This document shows positions 1-4,109 of a stretch of DNA of 4,109 bases, piece after piece. Position 1 is the first letter of the stretch, and every line of letters begins with the position of its first letter. A program made the translations under genes and the position numbers. Source of the stretch: a virus (lineage: Duplodnaviria > Heunggongvirae > Uroviricota > Caudoviricetes); IMG/VR virus record IMGVR_UViG_2663763227_000006; one strand, 5' to 3'. The notes beneath the pieces are model-generated. The model ran no database searches. It saw nothing but the letters and a program-made list of their open reading frames with translations, and had not been told where the DNA came from.

Positions 1-141
1 TTCATTGGAGCACCTGTGTTGTTCTGAGGTGAGCATATCACCTCTGTTCAGGTGGCCAAATTCAGTGTGCCACTTCAGTTGTAATCTGATTTTGCTACAA
101 TATTCATGTTAGTTTCCTTGCATACGGTTACTGACATAGAG

Positions 142-185
142 GCCCGGTTTGTGTTCGCGCACTGCCGGGCTTCACTATTTTTATT
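142..185 (+). terminator. Rho-independent terminator-like hairpin on the + strand: GC stem GCCCGG (142-147) / CCGGGC (165-170) with an inner GTG/CAC pairing, followed by TTCACTATTTTTATT. It overlaps the stop codon of the Arc-like gene on the opposite strand.
   Basis: Read directly from the sequence. The U-rich tract follows the stem only on the + strand; on the - strand the stem is followed by TCTATGTCAG, so it is a poor terminator for the Arc-like transcript. Confidence 0.4.
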
Positions 186-354
186 GGGCATTATCTCTTT
201 CCTCTCTCAGGCTTTTAGCCAGTCGCTGCACAATCGCAGAGTTGATAGAAATTCCATCCATTTCAGCAACACGTCTAATCTCCTCCTTCATTCGCGCTGG
301 CAAACGAAGCTGGAAACTTTGACTTTTACGACCTGTGTAAAGCACATCTTTCAT
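181..354 (-). CDS. Arc-like ribbon-helix-helix transcriptional repressor, 57 aa (MKDVLYTGRKSQSFQLRLPARMKEEIRRVAEMDGISINSAIVQRLAKSLREERDNAQ)
   Basis: Start taken as the ATG at complement 352-354, preceded by GGGAGGA (complement 360-366) with a 6-7 nt spacer; the ORF track's longer 62-aa version begins at an in-frame GTG with no SD. The motif F-x-L-R-L-P ... V-A-E-x-x-G-x-S-x-N-S-x-I-x-Q-R resembles P22 Arc (FNLRWP ... VAEENGRSVNSEIYQRV), recalled from memory. Size matches Arc (53 aa). Confidence 0.7.
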   Translation of the reverse strand: MKDVLYTGRKSQSFQLRLPARMKEEIRRVAEMDGISINSAIVQRLAKSLREERDNAQ

Positions 355-375
355 AAGTAATCCTCCCACAATGAT

Positions 376-400
376 ACCAACTTGGTTCTAGAACCAATTT
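376..400. promoter_or_regulatory. Candidate operator: perfect 16-bp palindrome TTGGTTCTAGAACCAA (382-397) overlapping a second palindrome ACCAAcTTGGT (376-386). The half-site TTGGT/ACCAA occurs four times in the intergenic region (376-380, 382-386, 393-397, 425-429).
   Basis: Palindrome verified base by base. It lies between two divergent RHH repressor genes and overlaps the -10/TSS region of the predicted leftward promoter. RHH repressors bind tandem symmetric sites as dimers of dimers (established for Arc and Mnt). Confidence 0.55.
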
Positions 401-423
401 AACACCATTTATTTTGATGTCAA
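396..423 (-). promoter_or_regulatory. Predicted sigma70 promoter for the Arc-like gene: -35 TTGACA (complement 418-423), 16-nt spacer ending in TGT (extended -10 TG), -10 TAAATT (complement 396-401); predicted TSS near 388-390, inside the palindrome.
   Basis: Consensus -35 hexamer and extended -10 read on the minus strand at correct spacing, about 35 nt upstream of the Arc-like RBS. Confidence 0.4.
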
Positions 424-437
424 GTTGGTGCTATTGT
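409..437 (+). promoter_or_regulatory. Possible rightward promoter for the Mnt-like gene: extended -10 TGcTATTGT (429-437) with a weak AT-rich -35 region (about 409-414). It sits back to back with the leftward promoter.
   Basis: Extended -10 motif read on the + strand about 29 nt upstream of ATG 466. The -35 is poor, so this is a weak call. Confidence 0.25.
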
Positions 438-465
438 TTAGCGAACATCTTTACGTTGAGGTCAT

Positions 466-786
466 ATGAGCAAGTTCCCTAGTCATGAAATGGATAGGTT
501 CAATATCAGGCTTCCTGCAGGAATGCGGGATGCTATAGCTGAACGAGCAAAACGTAACGGCAGATCAATGAACTCAGAGATTGTTCAGATACTGGAAGAT
601 GCCTTGAATGCAGAAAATACACTCGGGGAAATAGCAGATAAAATCAACAGCGTCTCGGTTCCGCTAAATGTTGATGCGCTAGTTCAACTTCAAGCCCAGG
701 TTATCGCCATGCAAAAAGAAATACAGGAAAAGTTCAGAGAGCAGAACGAAAAGTTGAGAGAACTGCTAAACAAAAAACCCACCTGA
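466..786 (+). CDS. Mnt-like ribbon-helix-helix repressor with a C-terminal coiled-coil extension, 106 aa
   Basis: ATG 466 preceded by GAGG (458-461). N-terminal DRFNIRLP ... AKRNGRSMNSEIVQILEDAL closely parallels P22 Mnt (HFNFRMP ... ANGRSMNSELLQIVQDAL), recalled from memory. The C-terminal 50 aa are heptad-like (LVQLQAQVIAMQKEIQEKFREQNEKLRELL), consistent with the Mnt tetramerisation helix. AGG, AGA and ATA codons suggest foreign origin. Confidence 0.8.
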   Translation: MSKFPSHEMDRFNIRLPAGMRDAIAERAKRNGRSMNSEIVQILEDALNAENTLGEIADKINSVSVPLNVDALVQLQAQVIAMQKEIQEKFREQNEKLRELLNKKPT

Positions 787-812
787 AGGTGGGTTAATTT
801 TTGCCTTTTTTG
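776..812. terminator. Intrinsic terminator, probably bidirectional: stem AACCCACC (776-783) / GGTGGGTT (788-795), loop TGAA, then AATTTTTGCCTTTTTT. The Mnt-like stop codon TGA (784-786) is the loop.
   Basis: 8-bp GC-containing stem with a 4-nt loop and a T-run downstream; an A-run upstream gives a U-tract on the other strand as well. Confidence 0.6.
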
Positions 813-819
813 GACCATA

Positions 820-848
820 TTGACTACTCATAAAATGAGATCAATATT
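820..848 (+). promoter_or_regulatory. Putative sigma70 promoter for the YjzC-like gene: -35 TTGACT (820-825), 17-nt spacer, -10 AATATT (843-848)
   Basis: Hexamers read from the sequence at canonical spacing, about 35 nt upstream of ATG 885. Confidence 0.3.
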
Positions 849-884
849 TAATCGCCCAATAACGGGTGCATGTTGAGGTATATC

Positions 885-1064
885 ATGGCGAAAAAACCAG
901 GTGAAAACACAGGAAAAAACGGCGGAATATACCAAGAAGTTGGCCCGCGCGGAGGTAAGAAAGACAATTTTGCCACCGTCAAGGACAACGAAAGGCTTCC
1001 GCCAACAACAAAGCCAGGTCATGGCTGGGTATTAGATAAGCGAACTCCAGACAGCAAAAAGTAA
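885..1064 (+). CDS. YjzC-like small protein, 59 aa (MAKKPGENTGKNGGIYQEVGPRGGKKDNFATVKDNERLPPTTKPGHGWVLDKRTPDSKK); function unknown
   Basis: Start at ATG 885 with GAGG (875-878) and a 6-nt spacer, preferred over the track's upstream ATG 870. The pattern KPGE...NGxIYxEVG...PxT...W and the 59-aa length match my memory of the Bacillus YjzC family. It has its own promoter-like signal and a terminator directly after the stop. Confidence 0.6.
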   Translation: MAKKPGENTGKNGGIYQEVGPRGGKKDNFATVKDNERLPPTTKPGHGWVLDKRTPDSKK

Positions 1065-1069
1065 TAATC

Positions 1070-1092
1070 AAGCCGGGTCACTCCGGCTTTTT
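1070..1092. terminator. Bidirectional intrinsic terminator between convergent genes: stem AAGCCGG (1070-1076) / CCGGCTT (1083-1089), loop GTCACT, then TTTTT. The stop codon of the minus-strand HExxH gene (complement 1078-1080) is in the loop.
   Basis: Hairpin and flanking U-rich tracts on both strands read from the sequence; located exactly between the 3' ends of 885..1064 (+) and 1078..1443 (-). Confidence 0.6.
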
Positions 1093-1443
1093 GATATGTC
1101 GCTCGCAGAACTCAACAAGCCTGCTCATTAAGTAGCAGTAAGTCTCGTTGGCTCTTCCTGGTTCAACATCAACGCCGACCCTTGAGCAGATATCGAATGC
1201 CATGTGAGCGCACTCATGGGCAATAGTAGATAGTTTGCCATTGAACACACCTATCACATGCAAAACACCATTCTCGCTGCTCATTGTATGAGACGCTCCG
1301 TTGGCATCCGAGTCCTGCACGTCCACGCCAAGTTTTTGATGCAGGCGTTGCCATTCTGGAAAGTCTCTGCAAAACACAATTGTACCGCTCTCAAAGAGCG
1401 GAACGAGCATTTTTGGTACGTTTCCAATGTTAACTTTTTTCAT
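1078..1443 (-). CDS. Hypothetical small protein with an HExxH zinc-binding motif (IAHECAHMAFD, with a downstream Glu in GRANETY), 121 aa; putative minimal gluzincin/ImmA-like metallopeptidase
   Basis: Intact 121-codon ORF with a weak SD (AGGA, 4-nt spacer) before ATG 1443. The HExxH plus downstream Glu arrangement is the gluzincin signature. The overlapping + strand reading (1258..1473) has no RBS and a junk-like composition. Family not recognised beyond the motif. Confidence 0.55.
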   Translation of the reverse strand: MKKVNIGNVPKMLVPLFESGTIVFCRDFPEWQRLHQKLGVDVQDSDANGASHTMSSENGVLHVIGVFNGKLSTIAHECAHMAFDICSRVGVDVEPGRANETYCYLMSRLVEFCERHIKKPE

Positions 1444-1473
1444 GGTATCCTGCTCAAAACTAAGGAGGTTGGT

Positions 1474-1701
1474 GTGAAGCGATGGTTCCTCATAATTACT
1501 GCTTTCGCGATCATTTACACTATTTTCCCTGCATTAAAAGCACCAATGCAAATAATTTCACTAGCAATAATTGCGATTAGTGCTTTCATTGTAGTGGCTG
1601 TACTTGTGTTTAAGATTTTAAATTTTTTAGTTTGGCTATCAAAAGATGATGGATGCAAAGTTTATCAAGAAAAAGAAGGCAAAATAACCAAAGGTGACTA
1701 A
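1474..1701 (+). CDS. Small membrane protein with two predicted transmembrane helices, 75 aa (VKRWFLIITAFAIIYTIFPALKAPMQIISLAIIAISAFIVVAVLVFKILNFLVWLSKDDGCKVYQEKEGKITKGD); GTG start
   Basis: Consensus SD AGGAGG (1463-1468) five nt before GTG 1474. Two hydrophobic stretches (WFLIITAFAIIYTIF and IISLAIIAISAFIVVAVLVF) followed by a charged tail. The long track ORF from ATG 1258 is rejected because its first half is antisense to the HExxH gene. Confidence 0.5.
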   Translation: MKRWFLIITAFAIIYTIFPALKAPMQIISLAIIAISAFIVVAVLVFKILNFLVWLSKDDGCKVYQEKEGKITKGD

Positions 1702-3388
1702 CTGTCACTAGCGAGCCATGTAATAATCCCCGTGCGGGCAATGGTTTTTGCTTCATCTGTTGATAAGGTTTTCTCCCATCTCTTAAATGCCCCAGATTGC
1801 ATCAGTTTCCTTTCTATTACGCGTCTCACTTCTGCTCTGTCTACTGGTGCGTTTTGCAGGCGAAATAGCATTAATTTAAACTCAGGAGAAGACAGTAGAG
1901 CATCAGCAGCCTTTATCCTGCTTGTTTTCCCTGACATCAATGCGGACGTTATCACCCCTGTTGCACCTACACCAGGAAGACCAGATAAGCTTGTAATACC
2001 TTCCGCCGCAGCAGCTTTTGAGGCTATTCCATAAATTTTTGCGAGACTACCCTTTTCTTTCAGAAAGTTATTAACTTGCTGATCCACAAGACTACTAGCA
2101 TGCTGCTTACCAGTATTGAGTCTATTCATAGCCTTAGCTGCTTGATAAATCGTATCAAGGCGCTTTGATGCATCTGTGCCAATAGCATCACGGAGAGCCT
2201 TCATATTGGCCCCATTGCGTGACATTCCGTTATACCATTTTACAAATCCATCAACTCCTAATTGCTGACCAGGTGATTTGGCATAGCTGGTAAATGCTTT
2301 ATTCATTGAGGTGAGCGCAACTTCCTGCCGCATATCCTTTGGAATTGACTTCATTAATTGCCTAAAGTCACCACCGTTTCCTTTTGCCATATTAACAACG
2401 GCACTTTCAACTTTTGGAATTGCTGATTGCTGAAGTTTTCTACCCAAGACGGTTACAGCATCATCTTCAATGGATTTTCGTTTTTTTACCAACTCCTTAC
2501 CAAGCGTCCATAATTCCCCTGCGCCATATTTTTCTGCAACAGCCTGTTGGTCATCTGTTATGGCTGCATATAACTTTTTAAGAACACCTGTTTCTTCATC
2601 CTTGAATGGGCCAGAGCCTTTGCCAATAGCTTGTCCAACCTGCTTTCTAGCGAGATCTAAACGCCCATACGTTGGCAAGGTGTTTGGATCAAGTCGGTTC
2701 AATGTCCGCTTCATTATTGGAGATAATTCATCAATTCCACCTATGTCATCAGCAAAATCCTCTAAAAAATTCAATGTATTAGTTGCCTCAATCCGGTCTC
2801 TTACAGGTACCTTTTCGGCAATTTTGTTGTAGATGTTATCTGACTGATTTTGTAATGATGAAATGGTTTTATCAAAATTATCTGCAAGCCTGTCAGAAAC
2901 CAGTTGCTTATCAAGGTTTCCCCCAAATGAAGTTATCATTTCATCAGCTTTTCTTCCTAATTCAGTAATAAAACGCTTATGCGCCTCACTAATCTCTGTT
3001 CCAGGGAGACTTGCCACTGCATTATCAAGAGCCCTGACAGCAGGATTATTAGAGATCATGCCTGGAGTGGCATAATTTTCCAGTTCTAGCTCACGAATAG
3101 CATTTATCGCGTTAAAATCAGGATTAACTTCATCGGCGAAATCTTGAATAGCTCGTTGCCCACCAATAAATTTATTATCCATTGCGCCAGCAGCTTTCTT
3201 TAACGTTGCTTTAGATGATTTACTACCCATCCCTACGGATGAGCGATAAATATCTCCGGCACTATTTTTAATTTTTCCTGCAATCTTCCCAAGCGCTGGA
3301 CCAACAATCTCGGCTACAGGGCCAGCCACAGCGCCAATAGCAGCGCCGGAAGCAACATCGCTATTTGTTCCATTGGCTACAATAGCCC
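1698..3388 (-). CDS. Large hypothetical protein, at least 563 codons, 5' end interrupted by the IS629-like insertion. Gly/Ala-rich N-terminal part of the fragment, then a long mostly helical K/E/Q/A-rich body. Tentatively a phage virion protein (ejection-protein-like or tape-measure-like).
   Basis: The reading frame stays open upstream of the track's GTG at 3329 and runs without any ATG/GTG/TTG or SD through 3388 into the IS terminal repeat, stopping at 3414-3416. So the true start lies beyond the IS. Function is inferred only from composition and from position relative to the immI-like module (P22 order: gene 16, sieA, mnt, arc, ant). No sequence identity to a named protein is claimed. Confidence 0.75.
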
Positions 3389-3442
3389 TGAACCGCCCCG
3401 GGAATCCTGGAGACTAAACTTCCTGAGAAAGAGGTAAACAGG

Positions 3443-3769
3443 ATGACTAAAAATACTCGTTTTTCCCCCGAAGTCCGTCAACGGGCAGTCCGTATGGTTC
3501 TGGAAAGTCAGAGCGAATATGACTCACAATGGGCGACAATTTGTTCCATTGCTCCAAAGATTGGCTGTACGCCGGAGACTCTGCGTGTCTGGGTTCGCCA
3601 GCATGAGCGGGATACCGGGGGCGGTGATGGAGGGCTCACCACCGCTGAACGTCAGCGTCTGAAAGAGCTGGAACGTGAAAATCGTGAACTGCGCCGCAGT
3701 AACGATATCCTTCGCCAGGCTTCCGCTTATTTTGCGAAGGCGGAGTTCGACCGCCTCTGGAAAAAATGA
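3443..3769 (+). CDS. IS629-family transposase OrfA (helix-turn-helix and leucine-zipper part), 108 aa
   Basis: The protein [23 protein letters not shown]...[22 protein letters not shown] is recognisable as IS629 OrfA. An RBS GAGG lies upstream of ATG 3443. Confidence 0.95.
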
Positions 3770-4109
3770 TGCCACTGCTGGATAAGCTGCGTGAGCAGTA
3801 CGGGGTCGGACCGCTATGCAGCGAACTGCATATTGCCCCGTCAACGTATTACCACTGTCAGCAACAGCGACATCATCCGGATAAACGCAGTGCCCGTGCG
3901 CAGCGCGATGACTGGCTGAAGAAAGAGATACAGCGCGTATACGATGAAAATCACAAGGTATACGGTGTGCGTAAAGTCTGGCGTCAGTTGTTACGGGAAG
4001 GTATCAGAGTGGCCAGATGCACTGTGGCACGTCTCATGGCGGTTATGGGACTTGCCGGTGTTCTCCGGGGTAAAAAGGTCCGCACTACCGTCAGCCGGAA
4101 AGCCGTTGC
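3766..4109 (+). CDS. IS629-family transposase OrfB (DDE catalytic part), N-terminal 114 codons only; 3' end outside the window. Expressed in this family as an OrfAB fusion by -1 frameshifting.
   Basis: Frame -1 relative to orfA, starting ATGATG at 3766 and reading [75 protein letters not shown]..., as remembered for IS629 OrfB. The A6 run at 3761-3766 lies in the orfA/orfB overlap. Not in the ORF track because it runs off the end. Confidence 0.9.

Follow-up and report, generated by a model that had tools for sequence, protein, structure and literature searches.

The window analyzed here is a whole draft contig of 4109 bp (assembly GCA_001419865.1, WGS prefix LIUZ01) with insertion sequence (IS) ends on both sides. 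Between them lies a piece of a P22-like prophage, with an accessory module of the immI type and a long fragment of a virion gene. The features are as follows:

1-77, minus strand: terminal 77 bp of an IS911-family IS3 element, including the transposase start; the contig begins inside the element, and the stretch is identical to copies annotated 'IS3-like element IS911 family transposase'
78-107, minus strand: first ~10 codons of an antirepressor-like gene, cut by the IS911-family element; the counterpart in Escherichia coli 55989 is a 'P22AR C-terminal domain' protein
181-1701: accessory module of the immI type (Pfam Arc and PHROG matches)
184-354, minus strand: Arc-family gene (Pfam Arc)
466-786, plus strand: Arc/Mnt-like gene (Pfam Arc / PHROG)
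885-1064, plus strand: homolog of P22 orf59a, 59 aa, 98% identical to the P22 protein
1078-1443, minus strand: open reading frame (ORF) of 121 aa in the immI-type module
1474-1701, plus strand: membrane ORF of 75 aa, adjoining the virion-gene fragment
1698-3388, minus strand: 3' fragment of a predicted ejection (E) protein gene in the gene 16 position of a P22-like prophage, 98.6-99.0% identical to intact genes over 1691 nt
3327-3329, minus strand: GTG taken as a start by ORF callers, which aligns with internal Val165 of the intact 707-aa protein (...AAIGAV165AGP...)
3386-3388: predicted target-site duplication, CCC on the plus strand and GGG in gene sense, expected if the insertion was simple (from a 3-bp duplication in E. 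coli SBF22 and PMC3271280)
3389-3416, minus strand: IS-derived read-through, where the frame stays open into the left end of the IS and is closed by TAG at 3414-3416 (translation and alignment)
3389-4109, plus strand: left 721 bp of an IS3-family element of the IS629/IS1203 group (terminal TG, left inverted repeat, Pfam domains); the contig stops inside the element
3443-3769, plus strand: orfA of this element, HTH_Tnp_1 (PF01527)
from 3766, plus strand: start of orfB, overlapping the end of orfA, HTH_21 (PF13276)

Similarity to the prophage of E. coli 55989 starts at 77/78, and the first 31 nt of the match fall within the antirepressor coding sequence of that strain (8405-9031 of locus L005, minus strand). 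The module follows the P22 order 16-sieA-orf59a-mnt-arc-ant. SieA was considered as the identity of the 75-aa ORF at 1474-1701 and rejected. Because the 3.3-kb piece from 78 to 3388 sits between an IS911-family end on the left and an IS629-type end on the right, the prophage is at least doubly disrupted. A preliminary description of this DNA had pictured a defective prophage whose cargo genes remain intact. The interrupted virion gene agrees with that picture, but intact cargo is too tidy an account, since the second IS (IS911 family, 1-77) cuts the antirepressor-like gene.

The reading frame on the minus strand is open from 1698 to 3416, with a single stop at either end and none inside. Upstream, the frame is closed inside the IS by a TAG (reverse complement of 3414-3416), as the preliminary description had it. 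Alignment with two intact alleles places the break exactly at 3388/3389. There the window reads ...GGTTCA|GGGCTATTGTAGCC, whereas the intact gene reads ...GGAGAA|GGGGCTATTGTAGCC. On the prophage side, the fragment begins with the last two bases of codon 145 and runs through codons 146-707 to the stop codon TAA (1698-1700). On the IS side, positions 3389-3413 make up 25 nt, which give 8 codons and supply one base, the first, to a hybrid AGG codon; counting the TAG as well, 28 nt come from the IS. The tail is thus IS-derived as first described, but its length had been given as 27 nt. The fragment ORF is not a chance feature, since annotated intact genes match it over 1691 nt at 98.6-99.0% identity.

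The first in-frame ATG, GTG, or TTG past the IS-borne stop is the GTG at 3329, and the codon reads as Val165 in every intact allele compared. The preliminary description had already taken it for a probable internal valine codon with no start or Shine-Dalgarno sequence ahead of it, and the alignment bears this out: it does not correspond to the N-terminus of any of the 707-aa homologs. The 30 nt upstream (GATGTTGCTTCCGGCGCTGCTATTGGCGCT) are without a Shine-Dalgarno-like run, and no minus-strand promoter-like site leading into the fragment is found in 3330-3480. The RefSeq entry WP_252321729.1, a 'hypothetical protein' of 543 aa, begins at this GTG. Its exact product comes from one contig only, recorded for two samples.

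Past 3388/3389 the sequence is no longer similar to the intact alleles, and an IS3-family element (IS629 group) takes over with its terminal TG. The element starts TGAACCGCCCCGGG at 3389, with the TG abutting the target DNA. Its 721 bp are 99.9% identical to copies on E. coli plasmids, 99.2% identical to the copy in E. coli LC-1302-2020, and 97.2% identical to the copy in SBF22, which is complete (1310 bp) and flanked by a 3-bp duplication. PGAP labels copies of 92% identity as 'IS1203 family', and the closer copies carry only the label 'IS3 family transposase', with a programmed frameshift. The element is putatively named IS629 from its terminal sequence and the element length. IS629 produces duplications of 3-4 bp and prefers prophages, which hold 62% of its copies in O157 (PMC3271280). 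It is also associated with gene inactivation and adjacent deletions (PMC3271280; PMC9943667). The insertion resembles the IS629/IS1203 insertions of E. coli O157:H7, other E. coli, and Shigella in being an IS3-family element with orfA and orfB in prophage DNA. It differs from them in its junction: none of 5426 complete E. coli genomes matches a 160-nt junction query in one piece, and a 40-nt junction pattern is absent from the GTDB species representative genomes and the JGI metagenomes.

Intact copies of the gene, from phages E212 and EC.P3 and from the prophage of E. coli 55989, measure 2124 nt and encode 707 aa. The window therefore retains 562 codons (146-707), the back four-fifths of the gene, and lacks the N-terminal 144 codons. 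A 3' fragment of a longer coding sequence is what the preliminary description had proposed. Gene order in intact P22-like (Lederbergvirus) genomes is gp14 (DUF2824), gp7 (PF25688 P22_gp7), gp20 (PF16928 Inj_translocase), this gene, and the immI region. This is the slot of P22 gene 16 in the virion operon, directly after the gp7 and gp20 homologs, and the early suggestion of a gene 16 position holds on both flanks. The fragment covers positions 146-707 of the 707 positions of phrog_6704 (E=0), a family listed under 'unknown function' with members in E. coli and Salmonella assemblies, on hundreds of contigs in all. The intact E212 protein (QVW53994.1) carries the label 'transglycosylase'.

Homology to P22 gp16 is visible mainly at the level of profiles. 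The fragment matches phrog_770, 'DNA transfer protein', at E=1.6e-25; the protein matches it at E=2e-26 over residues 106-635, and P22 gp16 itself does so at E=2.3e-266. Direct BLASTP against P22 gp16 is marginal (E=0.028, 23% identity over 271 aa), and hhalign of a 31-sequence profile with the single P22 gp16 sequence is not significant (E=0.1). Accepted gp16 proteins are themselves mutually just 22-26% identical (PMC10461980). The relationship to gp16 that had been suspected thus stands through profiles and mosaic relatives, while direct pairwise similarity stays marginal.

The two proteins occupy the same late-operon slot, after the gp14, gp7, and gp20 homologs and before the immI region and tailspike, and both are without a peptidoglycan-hydrolase domain. 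Their weak similarity is collinear and runs from a Gly/Ala-rich hydrophobic segment (residue 155 here, residue 160 in P22). They differ in length (609 aa in P22, 707 aa here) and in family, this protein having its own PHROG. At the level of sequence, the phrog_6704 protein is a distinct gp16 type.

Mosaic relatives link the two types. The C-terminal ~475-480 aa are 26-33% identical (E from 1e-29 to 9e-63) to the 'DNA transfer protein' or 'transglycosylase' of many phages, and the informative matches are all phage virion genes, with no non-phage family among them. Proteins of Sf101 (gp13, 911 aa), Lumpael, Sortsne, IME_EC2, Kosakonia, and Ralstonia RSK1-like phages share the homologous C-terminal ~475 residues and carry an N-terminal SLT domain. 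Sf101 gp13, whose gene holds the same gene 16 slot as here, also contains a middle segment 81% identical to residues 53-189 of P22 gp16. The protein studied here has instead an unrelated N-terminal stretch of ~220 residues, which AlphaFold2 models with low confidence.

In T7, the functional analog is gp16, which is the largest of the ejection proteins, the third in order, and takes the inner-membrane end of the DNA conduit; gene order is conserved across short-tailed phages (PMC8954989). T7 gp16 has 1318 aa and an N-terminal transglycosylase domain, whereas this protein is without a sequence or fold match to any solved structure. Taken together, position, profile homology, and the mosaic relatives point to a probable ejection function.

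The intact protein does have the Gly/Ala-rich segment of the preliminary description, Gly and Ala together making up 46% of residues 110-185. The description had placed it at the N-terminus, but in intact alleles 144 further codons come before the fragment, so the native N-terminus is a different one. The most hydrophobic window of 19 residues (156-174) has a Kyte-Doolittle mean of 1.53, which is suggestive but under the value of a clear transmembrane helix. AlphaFold2 predicts an all-helical protein with a confident core at 232-570, in line with the largely helical character first noted. Among predicted phage proteins, the model resembles ones that have a lytic domain at the N-terminus, and also one called 'injection protein'. 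PDB sequence searches with the single protein and with the 31-sequence profile return only noise, and Foldseek against the PDB returns nothing below E=0.1. Pfam gives no domain at E<=1 for the 707-aa protein or the fragment, except for two sub-threshold matches. One is Tape_meas_lam_C, whose 36-residue match scores 14.9-15.8 bits and so misses the 23-bit cutoff.

The same gene is disrupted elsewhere. E. coli LC-1302-2020 has a 99%-identical IS in this gene, oriented as in the window but inserted 129 bp nearer the 5' end of the gene, with host DNA (appA) beyond the IS. In E. coli SBF22, an IS629-type element interrupts it with both halves kept. Together with the window, these independent IS629-type insertions lie at about codons 102, 145, and 270. 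Further inactivated alleles have a nonsense mutation at codon 144, a frameshift in a GGGG run at codon 145, or a disruption after residue 104 (strain E7476). Codons ~140-145 of the intact gene read CCCCTTCTCCAGCACC in reverse complement. A search for the missing 5' fragment with the N-terminal 144 aa (three clusters expanded, P0008 examined) returned other inactivated alleles and none from the source assembly. The predicted IS read-through tail GEGVNRPG... is absent among the N-terminal fragments retrieved by this search, which is blind to some members and partial genes.

In P22, the head contains the gene 16 product, which leaves it before the DNA does. With gp7 and gp20 it builds a trans-envelope conduit in which gp16 sits at the inner membrane, and P22 particles without gp16 do not inject DNA. 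Against this background, the window very probably records how an IS629-group element entered a P22-like (Lederbergvirus) prophage of E. coli at codon 145 of its gene 16 equivalent, the third of the ejection-protein genes, and left a pseudogene as the remnant. In the proposed course of events, an element of this IS3-family group would have transposed into codon 145 and parted the N-terminal 144 codons from the remaining 562. The remnant, without its native start, ribosome-binding site, and promoter, would then be a pseudogene, and the 543-aa 'hypothetical protein' would be the outcome of gene callers starting at an internal GTG. Loss of function of the interrupted gene is the likely consequence. 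Because P22 particles lacking gp16 do not inject DNA, a prophage with this allele presumably could not form infectious particles.

Several other readings bear on parts of this account. The insertion may have been followed by an IS-mediated deletion or rearrangement, so that the 5' 144 codons and the upstream virion genes no longer lie beside the IS and are possibly lost, with 78-3388 as an isolated remnant. Such a course is compatible with an insertion in codon 145 and competes only with the idea that the 5' part lies across the IS; we regard it as quite possible, at somewhat less than an even chance. The run of the LC-1302-2020 element into appA speaks for it, as does the left end of the window, where an IS likewise truncates a gene. 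Matching duplications were found at only 21 of the 47 IS629 sites in O157 genomes (PMC3271280), and no N-terminal fragment with the GEGVNRPG... tail appeared among those retrieved. However, SBF22 is a simple insertion with both halves and a 3-bp duplication, and the missing N-terminal fragment is weak evidence in view of the incomplete search. It is very unlikely that the gene product is something other than a gp16-type protein, namely a lytic transglycosylase or a tape-measure-like protein, although the E212 label, the lytic transglycosylase annotation of several distant homologs, and the sub-threshold Tape_meas_lam_C match could be read that way. A transglycosylase identity was rejected: Pfam finds no SLT, lysozyme-like, or other domain in the 707-aa protein or the fragment, even though SLT is readily found in Sf101 gp13 (E=3e-25) and in P0063, and the relatives so labeled carry it as a separate N-terminal domain that is missing here. 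A tape-measure identity was likewise rejected, the match being short and under its cutoff, P22-like phages being short-tailed, and the gene order being that of the P22 E-protein operon.

Two further readings concern the junction and the 543-aa ORF. That the junction is an assembly artifact, a prophage contig made chimeric with a repeated IS while the gene is really intact, is barely credible. The contig is a short draft contig with repeats at both ends, and its left IS stretch of exactly 77 bp is typical of a k-mer overlap. Yet prophage and IS meet exactly where the inverted repeat of the IS ends in its TG, as transposition gives and as would be unexpected for a chimera, and the 721 bp of IS on the right far exceed the length of such an overlap. 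Two samples carry this contig, and closed genomes hold independent insertions of the same type of IS into the gene. Equally remote is the prospect that the ORF from the GTG at 3329 yields a genuine, expressed shortened protein, for example, one that is dominant-negative against incoming P22-like phages. In its favor, all 562 codons are open, the fragment keeps the confidently modeled helical core and the segment of highest hydrophobicity, and the product has a RefSeq entry. Against this stand the upstream region without Shine-Dalgarno or promoter-like site, the constancy of Val165, and an allele known from a single contig. The window lineage also has 3 private nonsynonymous changes against 6 private synonymous ones, compared with 0 nonsynonymous and 13 synonymous differences among the intact alleles of 55989, E212, and EC.P3; the contrast (Fisher p about 0.05) is a weak sign of relaxed constraint. 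A fragment free of stops and frameshifts over 562 codons may mean that the insertion is recent, or that the fragment is under selection.

The locus is an ordinary decayed prophage piece and not a new system. One could speculate that the gene 16 equivalent of prophages in this P22-like group is a recurrent and possibly favored target of inactivation, which locks the prophage in place with immunity and accessory genes kept, and that the C-terminal fragment may interfere with related phages that enter the cell. We consider this very improbable; the recurrent disruptions may merely mirror the number of decaying copies sequenced. Importance beyond annotation is small. WP_252321729.1 is best flagged as the product of a pseudogene fragment read from an internal GTG. 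The label 'transglycosylase' of the E212 protein is without a domain basis and seems to have been taken over from mosaic relatives; we suggest 'Ejection protein, gp16 type' in its place. The helical core at 232-570, which is confidently modeled, could serve work on the P22-like ejectosome.

The minus-strand gene fragment at 1698-3388 belongs to a gp16-type ejection protein gene that an IS has truncated; the P22-like prophage around it is fragmented. The fragment's 1691 nt match three phage records at 96.8-98.6% identity in megablast (Escherichia phages E212 and EC.P3 and Salmonella phage S.Kent 1-2-1) and are 99.0% identical to the prophage of E. coli 55989, which adjoins a tRNA-Arg gene and intS. 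Wherever it is annotated, the intact gene is 2124 nt long, with 707 codons; the window retains bases 2-3 of codon 145 and all codons from 146 to 707, confirming the preliminary description of the gene as a 3' fragment of a longer CDS. A PHROG scan independently agrees with the truncation point obtained from the intact alleles: of the 707 positions in profile phrog_6704, the fragment matches 146-707. Clustering at 90% identity groups 777 proteins, drawn from E. coli and Salmonella assemblies; one of them, 707 aa long, is by itself recorded on 682 contigs.

Translation shows the minus-strand frame to be continuous over 1698-3416, as had been claimed, from an upstream TAG (reverse complement of 3414-3416) to the native stop at 1698-1700. 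In an alignment with two intact alleles, the window agrees base for base to 3388 and diverges completely after it; from 3389 it reads TGAACCGCCCCGGGAATCC..., the IS terminus. The IS-derived part of the frame, previously put at 27 nt, is 25 nt long (3389-3413; 28 nt if the stop codon is counted); the rest of that observation is correct. Past the upstream TAG, the frame first offers a start codon with the GTG at 3329, which is internal, as proposed, and corresponds to Val165 of the 707-aa intact protein. No Shine-Dalgarno-like sequence occurs in the 30 nt preceding it, and a consensus scan found no promoter-like site upstream of it on the minus strand. The observation is thereby confirmed, and its interpretation is supported in the main points.

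Features of the window, with strand where assigned
184-354 (minus) and 466-786 (plus): divergent pair of Arc-family ribbon-helix-helix genes, 111-bp intergenic region
1078-1443 (minus): 121-aa ORF with an HExxH-like motif (HECAH); phrog_1365 (unknown function)
1474-1701 (plus): 75-aa ORF converging on the end of the gene fragment with a 4-bp overlap; phrog_7294 (unknown function)
3389-4109: IS3-family element, terminal TG at the gene junction; the contig ends within it
3443-3769: orfA, HTH_Tnp_1 domain
Overlapping orfA: start of orfB, HTH_21 domain

The terminal TG and the overlapping orfA and orfB are the IS3-family layout. The IS stretch is 99.9% identical to E. coli plasmid copies, 99.2% to the copy in E. 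coli LC-1302-2020 and 97.2% to the complete copy in E. coli SBF22 (1310 bp, 3-bp duplication). It is compatible with IS629 in length and duplication size (both from the SBF22 copy) and in terminal sequence; "IS629 group" is the safe name because PGAP labels 92%-identical copies "IS1203 family". Of the IS629 copies in O157 genomes, 62% lie in prophages, and the duplications that IS629 makes, 3-4 bp long, were seen at only 21 of 47 sites (PMC3271280). IS truncation of a prophage gene is a familiar occurrence in E. coli.

The window is the entire contig LIUZ01000079.1 of draft assembly GCA_001419865.1, which is carried by two samples; its 543-aa product, WP_252321729.1, is assigned by RefSeq to Escherichia coli. 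Exactly 77 bp of an IS911-family element open the contig: window 1-77 is identical to the end of IS911-family IS3 elements, with the transposase start on the minus strand, and the match to the 55989 prophage begins at 77/78. This element cuts an antirepressor-like gene ("P22AR C-terminal domain" in 55989) after about 10 codons (window 1-107). An IS911-family end on the left and an IS629-group end on the right thus flank the prophage piece at 78-3388, and since the contig starts and stops within insertion sequences, the sequence beyond is unreadable. The two bracketing elements differ, and each points its left end inward.

Gene order is the same in E212, EC.P3, 55989 and several draft contigs: coat, gp4, gp10, tail needle (gp26), DUF2824 (gp14), P22_gp7 (PF25688), Inj_translocase (PF16928, gp20), this gp16-type gene, the Arc/Mnt immunity region and tailspike. 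P22 shares the order 14-7-20-16-sieA-orf59a-mnt-arc-ant-9; the gene therefore occupies the gene 16 slot. The 59-aa ORF at 885-1064 is 98% identical to P22 orf59a, and together with the gene order it establishes the claimed match to gene 16 in position beside an immI-like module. The divergent Arc-family pair is the arc/mnt-type arrangement of immI. Hydrophobic stretches suggest that the 75-aa ORF encodes a small membrane protein; it sits in the P22 sieA slot, but SieA was rejected as its identity, as it has no similarity to SieA. The 121-aa ORF, which has no Pfam match, lies between this slot and orf59a, where P22 has no gene.

Sequence evidence linking the 707-aa protein to gp16 is mixed. The profile phrog_770 ("DNA transfer protein") matches it at E=2e-26 over residues 106-635 and matches P22 gp16 at E=2.3e-266. 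The BLASTP alignment to P22 gp16 covers 271 residues at only 23% identity (E=0.028) and is collinear, starting with the Gly/Ala-rich segment; a 31-sequence profile did not match the single P22 gp16 sequence significantly. Proteins of this class normally show such weak similarity. Between the gp16 types of P22, HK620, CUS-3 and the L/Sf6 pair, identity is 22-26%, and whole E-protein sets are exchangeable between phages despite low gp16 identity (PMC10461980); a review gives a mean of 16% for P22-group homologues (PMC8954989). Identity to P22 falls from 98% in the orf59a homologue to about 23% in the adjoining gene-16-type gene, a sharp mosaic boundary.

By tblastn, the last ~480 residues show 26-33% identity (E as low as 9e-63) to the protein called "DNA transfer protein / lytic transglycosylase" in Sf101, Lumpael, Sortsne and IME_EC2 and in phages of Kosakonia, Klebsiella, Pseudomonas and Ralstonia. 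In Sf101 gp13 (911 aa), whose gene is in the same slot, an SLT domain (residues 7-110) is joined to a stretch with 81% identity to P22 gp16 residues 53-189 and to a C-terminal part that the 707-aa protein shares. No SLT or other Pfam domain was found in the 707-aa protein, so the "transglycosylase" label on the E212 protein (QVW53994.1, 5568-7691 of phage locus L001) is unsupported and was rejected; it seems to derive from mosaic relatives such as Sf101 gp13, with their N-terminal SLT domain.

An AlphaFold2 model of a 717-aa cluster representative (98% identical; 31 aligned sequences) is all-helical, in keeping with the largely helical protein described earlier. Its confident core spans residues 232-570 (pLDDT about 90), and the N-terminal 231 residues are low-confidence. 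The model matched no solved structure. Among predicted phage proteins it has many matches, 650-1000 aa long (best E=9e-24); some carry SLT, LT_GEWL or peptidase M15B domains, and one is named "injection protein". The IS interrupts the protein within its Gly/Ala-rich region (residues 110-185), just before its most hydrophobic stretch.

The junction did not turn up in complete E. coli genomes, GTDB representatives or JGI metagenomes, and a search for N-terminal fragments returned none from GCA_001419865.1. The missing 5' part, 433 nt, may lie across the IS; in other strains two outcomes are known for the IS-interrupted gene: both halves kept, or host DNA after the IS. SBF22 (L010 4439-5748) has a simple insertion of its complete IS629-type copy with both gene halves kept. 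In LC-1302-2020 (L003 10076 onward) the host gene appA directly follows the IS, which indicates a deletion. A disrupted protein from another assembly, P0003, is an N-terminal 103-aa fragment reading into an IS629-type right end (tail EPPRVSWRVFYL). These three insertions are independent and hit the same gene, which is repeatedly inactivated in other strains. P0008 has an apparent nonsense codon at 144, with a downstream 553-aa ORF called separately; P0019 and P0035 have an apparent frameshift in a GGGG run at codon 145 (...GAGEGLL*), either mutation or homopolymer sequencing error; and P0040 (strain E7476) is another disruption. The P0008, P0019 and P0035 alleles (loci L011-L016) are disrupted within one or two codons of the insertion site.

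Without its first 144 codons, start codon and translation signals, the fragment is a pseudogene; it is otherwise clean, so the insertion is probably recent. P22 particles without gp16 fail to deliver DNA (PMC10461980); by inference, a prophage with the truncated allele would be unable to give infectious progeny. The window lineage has 3 nonsynonymous and 6 synonymous private changes; the intact alleles of 55989, E212 and EC.P3 show 13 synonymous and 0 nonsynonymous codon differences. These counts give a weak hint that constraint on the window lineage is relaxed. The private amino acid changes (1698-3386, minus strand) are S302N, Y574H and S650L, and A668V is common to the window allele and the other IS-truncated allele, that of LC-1302-2020.
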